From Escherichia coli (GTDB lineage Bacteria; Pseudomonadota; Gammaproteobacteria; Enterobacterales; Enterobacteriaceae): a DNA stretch of 64,000 bases. The stretch lies in the NCBI RefSeq assembly GCF_003334385.1, contig NZ_QOWN01000023.1; one strand, 5' to 3'. Under the pieces are notes generated by a model. The model was not told where the DNA came from and made no database searches. It saw nothing but the letters and a program-made list of their open reading frames with translations. The translations under genes and the position numbers were made by a program. Below are positions 18,543 through 56,535 of this stretch, piece after piece (within the stretch, counting starts at the first letter, position 1; every line of letters begins with the position of its first letter).

Positions 18543-20393
18543 ATGGCCTTATTACAAATTAGTGAACCTGGTTTGAGTGCTGCGCCGCATCAGCGTCGTC
18601 TGGCGGCCGGTATTGACCTGGGCACAACCAACTCGCTGGTGGCGACAGTGCGCAGCGGTCAGGCCGAAACGTTAGCCGATCATGAAGGCCGTCACCTGCT
18701 GCCATCTGTTGTTCACTATCAACAGCAAGGGCATTCGGTGGGTTATGACGCGCGTACTAATGCAGCGCTCGATACCGCCAACACAATTAGTTCTGTTAAA
18801 CGCCTGATGGGACGCTCGCTGGCTGATATCCAGCAACGCTATCCGCATCTGCCTTATCAATTCCAGGCCAGCGAAAACGGCCTGCCGATGATTGAAACGG
18901 CGGCGGGGCTGCTGAACCCGGTGCGCGTTTCTGCGGACATCCTCAAAGCACTGGCGGCGCGGGCAACTGAAGCCCTGGCAGGCGAGCTGGATGGTGTAGT
19001 TATCACCGTTCCGGCGTACTTTGACGATGCCCAGCGTCAGGGCACCAAAGACGCGGCGCGTCTGGCGGGCCTTCACGTCCTGCGCTTACTTAACGAACCG
19101 ACCGCTGCGGCTATCGCCTACGGGCTGGATTCCGGTCAGGAAGGCGTGATCGCCGTTTATGACCTCGGTGGCGGGACGTTTGATATTTCCATTCTGCGCT
19201 TAAGTCGCGGCGTGTTTGAAGTGCTGGCAACCGGCGGTGATTCCGCGCTCGGCGGCGATGATTTCGACCATCTGCTGGCGGATTACATTCGCGAGCAGGC
19301 GGGCATTCCTGATCGTAGCGATAACCGCGTTCAGCGTGAACTGCTGGATGCCGCCATTGCAGCCAAAATCGCGCTGAGCGATGCGGACTCCGTGACCGTT
19401 AACGTTGCGGGCTGGCAGGGCGAAATCAGCCGTGAACAATTCAATGAACTGATCGCGCCACTGGTAAAACGAACCTTACTGGCTTGTCGTCGCGCGCTGA
19501 AAGACGCGGGTGTAGAAGCTGATGAAGTGCTGGAAGTGGTGATGGTGGGCGGTTCTACTCGCGTGCCGCTGGTGCGTGAACGGGTAGGCGAATTTTTCGG
19601 TCGTCCACCGCTGACTTCCATCGACCCGGATAAAGTCGTCGCTATTGGCGCGGCGATTCAGGCGGATATTCTGGTGGGTAACAAGCCAGACAGCGAAATG
19701 CTGTTGCTTGATGTGATCCCACTGTCGCTGGGCCTCGAAACGATGGGCGGCCTGGTGGAGAAAGTGATTCCGCGTAATACCACTATTCCGGTGGCCCGCG
19801 CTCAGGATTTCACCACCTTTAAAGATGGTCAGACGGCGATGTCTATCCATGTAATGCAGGGTGAGCGCGAACTGGTGCAGGACTGCCGCTCACTGGCGCG
19901 TTTTGCGCTGCGTGGTATTCCGGCGCTACCGGCTGGCGGTGCGCATATTCGCGTGACGTTCCAGGTCGATGCCGACGGTCTTTTGAGCGTGACGGCGATG
20001 GAGAAATCCACCGGCGTTGAGGCGTCTATTCAGGTCAAACCGTCTTACGGTCTGACCGATAGCGAAATCGCTTCGATGATCAAAGACTCAATGAGCTATG
20101 CCGAGCAGGACGTAAAAGCCCGAATGCTGGCAGAACAAAAAGTAGAAGCGGCGCGTGTGCTGGAAAGTCTGCACGGCGCGCTGGCTGCTGATGCCGCGCT
20201 GTTAAGCGCCGCAGAACGTCAGGTCATTGACGATGCTGCCGCTCACCTGAGTGAAGTGGCGCAGGGCGATGATGTTGACGCCATCGAACAAGCGATTAAA
20301 AACGTAGACAAACAAACCCAGGATTTCGCCGCTCGCCGCATGGACCAGTCGGTTCGTCGTGCGCTGAAAGGCCATTCCGTGGACGAGGTTTAA
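18543..20393 (+). CDS. hscA: Hsp70-type chaperone HscA
   Basis: Hsp70 signatures IDLGTTNS and DLGGGTFD; 616 aa from MALLQISEP. Confidence 0.96.
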
Positions 20394-41663: not shown

Positions 41664-43276
<1,613 letters not shown>

Positions 43277-47996: not shown

Positions 47997-48188
47997 CTAA
48001 CGTTGTACCGGTGATTCGACGGAGAGTGTGGATTGCTGAGCTTCTTTTTTGCTCTGATGGTGCTGCCAGGCACCGACGGACGAGTAGATAAAACGGCCAA
48101 AGAAGAAGATAAAGCTGATGAGCAGTACGATACGGGTCATGCGACTGTTAAATCGGTGTCGTTTTCGCATACTGGTTGCCTGACTCAC
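47997..48188 (-). CDS. yfgG: Small membrane protein YfgG
   Basis: 63 aa with one hydrophobic helix (IVLLISFIFFFGRFIY); in AT-rich spacer. Confidence 0.65.
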   Translation of the reverse strand: MSQATSMRKRHRFNSRMTRIVLLISFIFFFGRFIYSSVGAWQHHQSKKEAQQSTLSVESPVQR

Positions 48189-48398
48189 AAAAGGTTCCTT
48201 GAAGTATGTCCCACGCTGTGGACGGTACTTACATTAAGGCACAACAGGACAAAATGGTCAATTCTTCGTTATGTAAAAAAGCGTCAGTGGATACATATTT
48301 TAATGTTATGGAAGTTAATTTAATTATTTACAATGATGATGTAATAATGATGAATTAACATGATAAACGTAATAATTCATTAATCAGGGTTATTTTGT

Positions 48399-48412
48399 TT
48401 GATATATATCAA
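48399..48412 (+). promoter_or_regulatory. FNR-type binding site, perfect consensus half-sites TTGAT-N4-ATCAA
   Basis: TTGATATATATCAA, ~128 bp upstream of pdeF ATG; TAGAAT -10-like hexamer at 48434-48439 gives a class II arrangement. Confidence 0.6.
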
Positions 48413-48539
48413 TTGGTACTTTCATATGACACTTAGAATCAATGCTCTCTATAGTGATGAATAATCATCATTCGAAGTCAGGTGGGATGCCTGTCTGAAT
48501 ACACCTCCTTCAGGATGTGGGGGATTCTGCTGAGCATCT

Positions 48540-50783
48540 ATGAAACTGAATGCAACTTATATAAAAATACGTGATAAATGGTGGGGGCTTCCGCTGTTCC
48601 TGCCTTCTTTAATCTTGCCCATTTTCGCCCACATTAATACTTTCGCGCATATTTCTTCCGGTGAGGTTTTTCTCTTTTATCTGCCTCTGGCACTGATGAT
48701 CAGCATGATGATGTTTTTCAGCTGGGCGGCATTGCCAGGGATCGCCTTAGGGATTTTTGTCCGCAAATATGCAGAGCTGGGTTTTTACGAAACGCTATCA
48801 TTAACGGCTAATTTTATTATCATTATCATTCTCTGTTGGGGCGGTTACAGGGTCTTTACTCCCCGGCGTAACAACGTTTCACATGGTGATACCCGTTTAA
48901 TTTCCCAGCGTATATTCTGGCAGATTGTGTTTCCTGCAACGCTGTTTCTGATACTTTTCCAGTTTGCTGCATTTGTAGGATTACTGGCGAGCAGAGAAAA
49001 TCTGGTCGGTGTCATGCCTTTTAACCTAGGGACTTTAATCAATTATCAGGCCTTACTGGTGGGTAATCTGATCGGTGTCCCGCTGTGCTACTTCATCATT
49101 CGGGTAGTGCGAAATCCATTTTATTTACGTAGCTATTATTCGCAATTAAAACAGCAGGTTGATGCCAAAGTCACCAAAAAAGAGTTCGCGCTCTGGCTAC
49201 TGGCATTAGGTGCTTTATTGTTGCTGTTATGCATGCCGTTAAATGAAAAAAGCACAATTTTTAGCACCAATTATACCTTGTCATTATTGCTGCCCCTGAT
49301 GATGTGGGGAGCGATGCGCTATGGTTATAAGCTGATTTCGCTGCTCTGGGCGGTCGTGTTGATGATCAGCATCCACAGCTATCAAAATTACATTCCCATT
49401 TATCCTGGCTATACCACGCAGCTGACCATAACCTCCTCCAGTTATCTGGTATTCTCTTTTATTGTCAATTATATGGCTGTACTGGCAACCCGTCAGAGAG
49501 CGGTAGTCAGACGCATTCAGCGGCTTGCGTATGTGGACCCGGTGGTTCATCTGCCAAATGTTCGCGCCCTGAATCGCGCGTTGCGTGATGCCCCCTGGTC
49601 TGCGCTTTGTTATTTACGCATCCCTGGCATGGAAATGCTGGTTAAGAACTATGGCATCATGCTGCGGATTCAATACAAGCAAAAACTTTCTCACTGGCTG
49701 TCACCCTTGCTGGAACCGGGTGAAGATGTTTATCAGCTTTCGGGTAACGATCTCGCGCTGCGACTGAATACAGAATCGCACCAGGAGCGCATTACCGCAC
49801 TGGATAGCCATCTCAAGCAATTTCGTTTCTTTTGGGATGGCATGCCGATGCAACCGCAGATTGGCGTCAGTTACTGCTATGTGCGCTCGCCAGTGAATCA
49901 TATCTACCTGCTGCTGGGAGAGCTAAATACGGTCGCCGAACTTTCCATCGTGACCAACGCCCCGGAAAATATGCAGCGTCGCGGGGCAATGTATTTGCAA
50001 CGCGAATTGAAAGATAAAGTCGCGATGATGAATCGACTACAGCAGGCGCTGGAACACAACCATTTTTTCCTGATGGCCCAGCCGATTACCGGTATGCGTG
50101 GTGATGTTTACCATGAAATTCTTCTGCGCATGAAAGGTGAGAATGATGAACTGATCAGCCCCGATAGCTTCTTGCCGGTCGCGCACGAATTTGGTTTATC
50201 GTCGAGTATCGACATGTGGGTCATTGAGCATACGCTGCAGTTTATGGCTGAAAACAGAGCGAAGATGCCCGCTCACCGTTTTGCTATTAATCTGTCTCCA
50301 ACCTCGGTATGTCAGGCTCGTTTTCCTGTTGAAGTCAGTCAGTTGCTGGCTAAATATCAGATTGAAGCGTGGCAACTTATTTTTGAAGTCACCGAAAGTA
50401 ATGCTCTGACCAATGTTAAGCAGGCGCAAATCACCTTGCAGCATCTTCAGGAATTAGGCTGCCAGATTGCGATTGATGATTTCGGCACCGGCTACGCCAG
50501 CTATGCGCGGCTTAAAAATGTGAATGCCGATCTGCTTAAAATTGACGGCAGTTTTATCCGCAATATTGTGTCAAATAGTCTGGATTATCAGATAGTGGCA
50601 TCGATTTGCCACCTGGCGCGAATGAAGAAAATGCTGGTAGTGGCAGAGTACGTTGAAAACGAAGAGATCCGCGAGGCGGTGCTCTCTTTGGGGATCGATT
50701 ATATGCAGGGTTATCTTATTGGTAAGCCGCAGCCGTTAATTGATACGCTGAATGAAATCGAACCCATTCGCGAAAGTGCCTGA
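48540..50783 (+). CDS. pdeF: Membrane c-di-GMP phosphodiesterase (MASE1 - degenerate GGDEF - EAL)
   Basis: N-terminal multi-TM region; degenerate GGDEF position (SGNDL); EAL-type motif EILLR and DDFGTGYAS; 747 aa. Confidence 0.92.
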   Translation: MKLNATYIKIRDKWWGLPLFLPSLILPIFAHINTFAHISSGEVFLFYLPLALMISMMMFFSWAALPGIALGIFVRKYAELGFYETLSLTANFIIIIILCWGGYRVFTPRRNNVSHGDTRLISQRIFWQIVFPATLFLILFQFAAFVGLLASRENLVGVMPFNLGTLINYQALLVGNLIGVPLCYFIIRVVRNPFYLRSYYSQLKQQVDAKVTKKEFALWLLALGALLLLLCMPLNEKSTIFSTNYTLSLLLPLMMWGAMRYGYKLISLLWAVVLMISIHSYQNYIPIYPGYTTQLTITSSSYLVFSFIVNYMAVLATRQRAVVRRIQRLAYVDPVVHLPNVRALNRALRDAPWSALCYLRIPGMEMLVKNYGIMLRIQYKQKLSHWLSPLLEPGEDVYQLSGNDLALRLNTESHQERITALDSHLKQFRFFWDGMPMQPQIGVSYCYVRSPVNHIYLLLGELNTVAELSIVTNAPENMQRRGAMYLQRELKDKVAMMNRLQQALEHNHFFLMAQPITGMRGDVYHEILLRMKGENDELISPDSFLPVAHEFGLSSSIDMWVIEHTLQFMAENRAKMPAHRFAINLSPTSVCQARFPVEVSQLLAKYQIEAWQLIFEVTESNALTNVKQAQITLQHLQELGCQIAIDDFGTGYASYARLKNVNADLLKIDGSFIRNIVSNSLDYQIVASICHLARMKKMLVVAEYVENEEIREAVLSLGIDYMQGYLIGKPQPLIDTLNEIEPIRESA

Positions 50784-56360: not shown

Positions 56361-56535
56361 GACTGCTTTACACAACCTTTTTGCACGTCTTTTCCCCAGG
56401 CGCGCGGCGAAAGAAGACTTGTGCCAGGGTAAAGGTTAGTTTTCGGATGGAATAATCTTCTTTCATAACCATCTGAATATAAAATAACTTTATCTCAAAC
56501 CGTTATCATTTTGACTAAAGTCAACGAAAAGAATA

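Follow-up and report, generated by a model that had tools for sequence, protein, structure and literature searches.

The question raised by this locus is how transcription of pdeF (yfgF), which encodes a c-di-GMP phosphodiesterase with a MASE1-GGDEF-EAL architecture, is controlled, and whether the palindrome TTGATATATATCAA upstream of the gene connects it to anaerobiosis through FNR. In the initial annotation this sequence had been read as a perfect FNR box and as the basis for anaerobic, FNR-dependent expression of pdeF. We conclude that TTGATATATATCAA very probably serves as the operator through which FNR activates a class II sigma-70 promoter of pdeF. The site, its geometry and its conservation were determined in the present analysis, and the in vivo occupancy and the FNR- and anaerobiosis-dependent expression were taken from the literature.

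The gene order in the analysed DNA (64 kb in total, hereafter the window) is guaB-guaA, then yfgI-yfgH-yfgG on the other strand, and then the divergent pdeF followed by ppx and ppk. Pfam MASE1 and EAL domains were found on homologues of PdeF, the product of the regulated gene. The yfgG/pdeF intergenic region is the same as in K-12 MG1655, where the box lies at 2629066-2629079 in U00096.3. The window strain and MG1655 differ at two of 2901 bases, both within the pdeF coding sequence. Of 5426 complete E. coli genomes, 5423 contain a match to the 801 bases around the box, and in each of them the match is chromosomal. Rearrangements close to the promoter were seen in individual strains. In E. coli ES6 (NZ_CM184335.1) a copy of IS1B ends right before GGAACTTTCAT, and the FNR box no longer adjoins the -10 hexamer. 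In E. coli SCZE5 an IS1A follows the base equivalent to window position 48268 and the box is intact, and in Escherichia sp. MOD1-EC7003 foreign sequence and a contig end start about 28 nt before the pdeF ATG. RefSeq also places a 50-amino-acid hypothetical protein (WP_000017552.1, 48206-48358, plus strand) between yfgG and the FNR box. This open reading frame is probably not a real gene, since its starts, stops and lengths (30-76 amino acids) vary when other genomes of Escherichia and Citrobacter are compared. The part of it that is conserved coincides with the region of the yfgG promoter, which lies on the opposite strand. The coordinates of the features discussed below are given in Table 1.

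Table 1. Features of the pdeF control region, in window coordinates.
Feature	Position	Strand	Basis and remarks
AT-rich element GTAATAATTCATTAAT, consensus GTAATAATTGATTAAT	48369-48384	+	near-invariant positions in the alignment; about -78 to -63
FNR box TTGATATATATCAA	48399-48412	.	palindrome; all 10 of 10 specified consensus positions matched
Sigma-70-like promoter ATGACA-18-TATAGT	48426-48455	+	consensus scan, 10/12 matches
-10 hexamer TAGAAT of the pdeF promoter	48434-48439	+	ortholog conservation; nirB gap; named as -10 in PMC3718329
Transcription start (inferred)	48447 (+/-1)	+	arithmetic; -41.5 stated in PMC3718329
pdeF 5' untranslated leader, about 93 nt	48447-48539	+	inferred start and ATG at 48540
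Predicted hairpin near the leader 5' end, GUGAUGA-AUAA-UCAUCAU	48453-48472	+	MFE folds
Almost invariant leader element GTCAGGTGGGATGCCTGTCT, 20 nt	48477-48496	+	13-ortholog alignment; +31 to +50
pdeF (yfgF) coding sequence	48540-50783	+	747-amino-acid ORF; RefSeq annotation pdeF

Both half-sites of the box are exact and are separated by 4 bp, as had been claimed for it, and this is the sole exact occurrence of TTGAT-N4-ATCAA in the window. The half-sites are of the TTGAT type rather than the GTGA type, which identifies the box as an FNR site and not a CRP site; the T preceding the G is the base that separates the two kinds of site. When set against the CRP consensus TGTGA-N6-TCACA, the sequence reads TTTGATATATATCAAT and lacks the GTGA and TCAC cores. 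In dinucleotide-preserving shuffles of the window the exact FNR consensus occurred 0.06 times on average and was present at least once in 6 of 100 shuffles, so that from sequence statistics alone the chance of an exact box in the window is about 6%. When one mismatch is allowed, three sites are found in the window and 2.13 are expected. As this count is at the level expected by chance, only the perfect site is distinctive. One-mismatch FNR-like sequences were located at 18709-18722 (TTGTTCACTATCAA) and 30001-30014 (TTGATGAATACCAA). The shuffles give some room to the reading that the box is a functionless chance palindrome in AT-rich intergenic DNA, and its spacer, ATAT, fits the local AT-richness (GC 0.20-0.26 across 48250-48449). 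This reading is taken up again below together with the conservation and occupancy data.

The position of the box is that of an activator site in a class II FNR promoter. A consensus inverted repeat overlaps the -35 region, and the spacing to the -10 hexamer is the correct one for this class. The hexamer TAGAAT, previously noted at about 22 bp past the box, begins 22 bases after the final base of the box, leaving a gap of 21 bp. The K-12 nirB promoter was fetched as a calibration and has an FNR box that matches 10 of 10 positions (TTGATTTACATCAA), followed after exactly 21 bp by TAAGGT, which we take to be the nirB -10. The box centre at 48405.5 corresponds to -41.5 if transcription starts at 48447; with this start the hexamer spans -13 to -8 and is thus shifted by one base from the customary -12 to -7. 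No TG of an extended -10 motif precedes the hexamer, and the FNR box takes the place of the -35 hexamer. The distance of about 128 bp between the box and the pdeF start, as first annotated, agrees with the coordinates (48540 minus 48412). The same annotation had placed the box in an AT-rich leader. Its surroundings are indeed AT-rich, but the box belongs to the promoter and not to the leader.

Conservation of this arrangement was analyzed in orthologous pdeF upstream regions, which were collected by a species genome scan (7 loci) and, for distant orthologs, by a protein search followed by contig look-ups. The resulting 13 regions represent E. coli clades, E. whittamii, E. fergusonii, four Citrobacter lineages, Salmonella, Enterobacter soli and three further enterobacterial contigs. 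All 13 promoters, which belong to PdeF proteins with 64-99% identity, contain a box that matches the FNR consensus at 9 or 10 of 10 positions and lies 138-157 bp before the ATG. In the alignment the TTGA and TCAA bases are invariant, and variation is found in the fifth base of each half-site (T/C and A/G), in the 4-bp spacer and in the flanks. Judged from the alignment, this is the pattern expected from selection on the FNR contacts. In the -10 hexamer (TAnAAT) all bases except the third are invariant, and no insertion or deletion occurs between box and hexamer. The box at the Salmonella locus, TTGACTTAAATCAA, agrees with the published promoter of Salmonella Enteritidis yfgF, for which TTGAC--ATCAA and TACAAT are given (PMC3718329). 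Among the complete E. coli genomes, 5373 of 5426 (about 99%) contain a 33-bp stretch that covers the box. This query was chosen over a 56-bp megablast query, by which some 1100 genomes were lost, since megablast needs a 28-base word and position 48417, between box and hexamer, is commonly polymorphic (T/A). What the present analysis adds to the published site is confirmation: its recognition bases, the -10 hexamer and the spacing between them do not vary over four genera of enterobacteria, and the same holds for about 99% of the complete genomes of E. coli.

The FNR site of the pdeF promoter is already characterised and known in full; it was published in 2010 and has been curated in RegulonDB. 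As quoted in Lacey 2013 (PMC3718329), Lacey, Partridge and Green (2010, Microbiology 156:2873) assigned the yfgF promoter of E. coli to the class II FNR promoters, placing the box TTGAT--ATCAA at -41.5 and naming TAGAAT as the -10. The RegulonDB curation paper lists FNR as an activator of yfgF under anaerobiosis, and Sarenko et al. (2017) found the PdeF protein to be undetectable aerobically and cited its anaerobic induction. The published support for FNR- and anaerobiosis-dependent yfgF expression in these three sources (PMC3718329, the RegulonDB curation, Sarenko 2017) all goes back to Lacey 2010. The earlier report of such expression to which the initial annotation refers does exist, in the form in which PMC3718329 quotes it and RegulonDB curates it. 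Occupancy was described by Myers 2013, who reported an FNR ChIP-chip/ChIP-seq peak at 2627146/2627100 between yfgF and yfgG (Table S5). Within this peak, TTGATATATATCAA is listed in Table S6 at 2627088 (U00096.2) as a predicted FNR site that has a PatSer score of 16.08 and is not overlapped by a nucleoid protein. The two sequence versions are offset by 1978 bp, and the coordinate becomes 2629066, which is exactly the FNR box. The comparison with FNR ChIP-seq peaks that had been proposed as a check thus places a published peak on the exact 14-mer and shows anaerobic occupancy by FNR in vivo. In the same study yfgF was estimated to be the target of the peak, with one known transcription start recorded under reference Lacey 2010 (Table S9). 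Two other FNR ChIP-seq sites of Myers 2013 fall in the window, namely TTGACTTTAGTCAA at upp/purM (56511-56524, minus strand) and TTGATCTCGCTCAC at guaB/xseA (43247-43260, minus strand); no FNR-dependent expression change is listed for either.

Position, conservation and published ChIP data raise the FNR box far above what chance would give. The recognition bases are invariant over four genera while neighbouring bases drift, the distance from the box to the conserved -10 does not change, and a published FNR ChIP-seq peak covers the site. The conservation and the ChIP data effectively refute the chance reading introduced above, and the probability that remains for it is negligible. It is also highly improbable that the box controls the divergent yfgG instead of pdeF. 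The box does lie in the spacer shared by the two genes, and yfgG is expressed about 2.2-fold higher anaerobically (ratio 0.45; Myers 2013, Table S12), but the peak was assigned to yfgF by Myers, and a search of the supplement did not find yfgG in the table of FNR-dependent expression (Table S8). Moreover, with the yfgG start of Peano 2015 (2627275 in U00096.2; window position 48225, minus strand) the box centre comes to lie about 180 bp upstream, outside the known FNR activation positions, and the box is therefore not placed to regulate yfgG.

Expression of yfgF is reportedly highest in stationary phase and at 28 C. During exponential growth in glucose minimal medium, yfgF was among the FNR peaks without an FNR-dependent change in mRNA (Myers 2013, Table S9). 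This result is the caveat to the claim that the box underlies anaerobic, FNR-dependent expression of pdeF, a claim that is otherwise supported by the literature, by the alignment and by the comparison with nirB. An effect of O2 on yfgF was seen solely in an hns/stpA double mutant (Myers 2013, Table S11), in which the FNR ChIP-chip signal at yfgF rose from 0.35 to 1.68 (Table S7), and H-NS has been flagged in the yfgF/yfgG spacer (Shimada 2014). In addition, for BasR a 2025 paper (PMC12419081) reported gel-shift binding to the yfgF promoter and a 2.3-fold repression. The growth-phase and temperature dependence, the Myers data on Table S9 and on H-NS/StpA, the H-NS assignment of Shimada and the BasR binding together suggest that FNR is probably necessary but not sufficient for pdeF expression.

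The lack of FNR dependence in exponential cells (Myers 2013, Table S9) would also fit transcription of pdeF mainly from an overlapping sigma-70 promoter, ATGACA-18-TATAGT, with a start near 48462. The box would then be centred at about -56.5 and be non-activating, and FNR would be neutral or inhibitory. The same pair of hexamers was predicted to be a constitutive yfgF promoter after SELEX with RpoD holoenzyme (Shimada 2014). Against this, neither hexamer is kept outside Escherichia whereas TAnAAT is invariant, the scan returned one promoter-like match, which is below the 2.4 expected from shuffles, and the position given for the box in the literature is -41.5 (PMC3718329). The lack of detectable PdeF under aerobic conditions further argues that an effective constitutive promoter is not present. 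Because its hexamers are unconserved beyond Escherichia and PdeF is absent aerobically, we give little weight to this promoter and consider it very unlikely to be the main source of pdeF transcripts.

Somewhat less improbable, although still unlikely, is that FNR acts mainly as an anti-silencer, countering H-NS/StpA on the AT-rich DNA just upstream and not recruiting RNA polymerase directly. The low GC content of the region, the H-NS assignment to the spacer, and the rise in FNR binding and the appearance of O2-dependent expression upon loss of H-NS and StpA would all agree with such a role. Against it stand the exact class II geometry, with the box 21 bp from an invariant -10 hexamer that has no -35 hexamer, and Table S6 of Myers 2013, in which the site itself is free of nucleoid proteins. 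Anti-silencing and class II activation are compatible, and FNR may do both.

We therefore retain class II activation by FNR as the preferred reading and propose the following mechanism. When oxygen is lacking, [4Fe-4S]-FNR would dimerise and bind the palindrome centred at about -41.5, which replaces a -35 hexamer, and would recruit RNA polymerase. With TAGAAT used as the -10, transcription would start near 48447 and yield a 93-nt leader followed by pdeF. When oxygen is present, the cluster would be lost, FNR would be released from the DNA and the promoter would be silent. Silencing of the AT-rich upstream DNA by H-NS/StpA, as well as growth phase, may also gate the output. The FNR site ties oxygen sensing to c-di-GMP signalling and hence to motility, the cell surface and the peroxide response.

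Besides the FNR box and the -10 hexamer, the alignment revealed that the most conserved stretch of the yfgG/pdeF intergenic region is not the FNR box but the element GTCAGGTGGGATGCCTGTCT in the leader, with an identity over the 13 orthologs (four genera) of 0.97-0.98 compared to 0.85-0.90 for the box. GTCAGGTGGGATGCCTGTCT is present as a single copy per E. coli genome, and 5363 of 5408 genomes matched a 73-bp leader query that contains it with an identity of 99% or more. The element can fold as a small hairpin, CAGG-UGGGAUG-CCUG, with GGA(U) in the loop, whereas other folds pair it with the nucleotides that immediately precede the pdeF AUG. Covariation in RNAalifold was weak (-0.77 kcal/mol, one compensatory pair) and does not discriminate between these folds, and the whole leader folded no better than shuffled sequences (z = -0.63); these values do not allow a conserved RNA structure to be assigned to GTCAGGTGGGATGCCTGTCT. 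An Rfam search of 48150-48650 at a permissive E-value gave no match. A mini-ORF in the element (ATG-CCT-GTC-TGA) was considered and rejected, as ATG is replaced by ATA in two orthologs and the TGA stop is missing in E. fergusonii.

Leaders regulated by CsrA contain at least two GGA motifs, of which at least one is in a hairpin loop and usually one overlaps the Shine-Dalgarno sequence. The pdeF leader has an invariant GGA at 48485-48487 and a second one at 48513-48515, which, as read from the alignment, is present in 12 of the 13 orthologs; neither overlaps the Shine-Dalgarno region. No entry for yfgF/pdeF was found in the supplements of E. coli CsrA CLIP-seq studies, which says little because pdeF is not expressed aerobically, and neither yfgF nor STM2503 was found in the supplements of a Salmonella CsrA paper. 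Literature searches found no paper that links yfgF to CsrA and no published function for GTCAGGTGGGATGCCTGTCT. We tentatively suggest, as a possibility well short of a probable one, that the FNR box is just one part of a composite control region with deep conservation, in which GTCAGGTGGGATGCCTGTCT would act as an undescribed post-transcriptional switch, involving CsrA, a small RNA or sequestration of the ribosome site. If so, the switch might explain why FNR occupies the promoter without expression in exponential glucose medium. GTCAGGTGGGATGCCTGTCT is the only item reported here that is possibly new.

Beyond its published parts, the promoter region carries two further conserved elements, which are apparently uncharacterised. 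The AT-rich element at 48369-48384 is conserved across genera with a sliding identity of 0.82-0.86 and might bind either the C-terminal domain of the RNA polymerase alpha subunit or a second regulator. When it was inspected by eye as a NarL 7-2-7, IHF, ArgR, PurR, Fur, BasR or H-NS motif, none of these matches was convincing. In addition, folding of the leaders predicts a hairpin close to their 5' end, which recurs at this position in 12 of 13 orthologs although the sequences differ between genera (Z-scores of -0.9 to -3.6); this would fit a stem that stabilises the 5' end, with transcription starting upstream of it.

Among known systems, nirB serves as the model for class II FNR promoters; FNR is bound there at -41.5, and it shares with pdeF an identical gap between box and hexamer (21 bp). 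It also has a NarL/NarP site at -69.5 as well as Fis and IHF sites, whereas the element near -70 in the pdeF promoter does not, as judged by eye, resemble a NarL 7-2-7 site. A further difference from nirB is the long leader of pdeF (93 nt). Class II promoters activated by CRP (TGTGA-N6-TCACA) likewise have a palindrome for a dimeric activator of the CRP/FNR family that overlaps the -35 region, but their half-sites are of the GTGA type and that of pdeF is TTGAT. The closest system is the K-12 yfgF promoter itself (Lacey 2010, in the part quoted in PMC3718329), which represents the same locus with the same sequence and has a promoter identical to the one described here.
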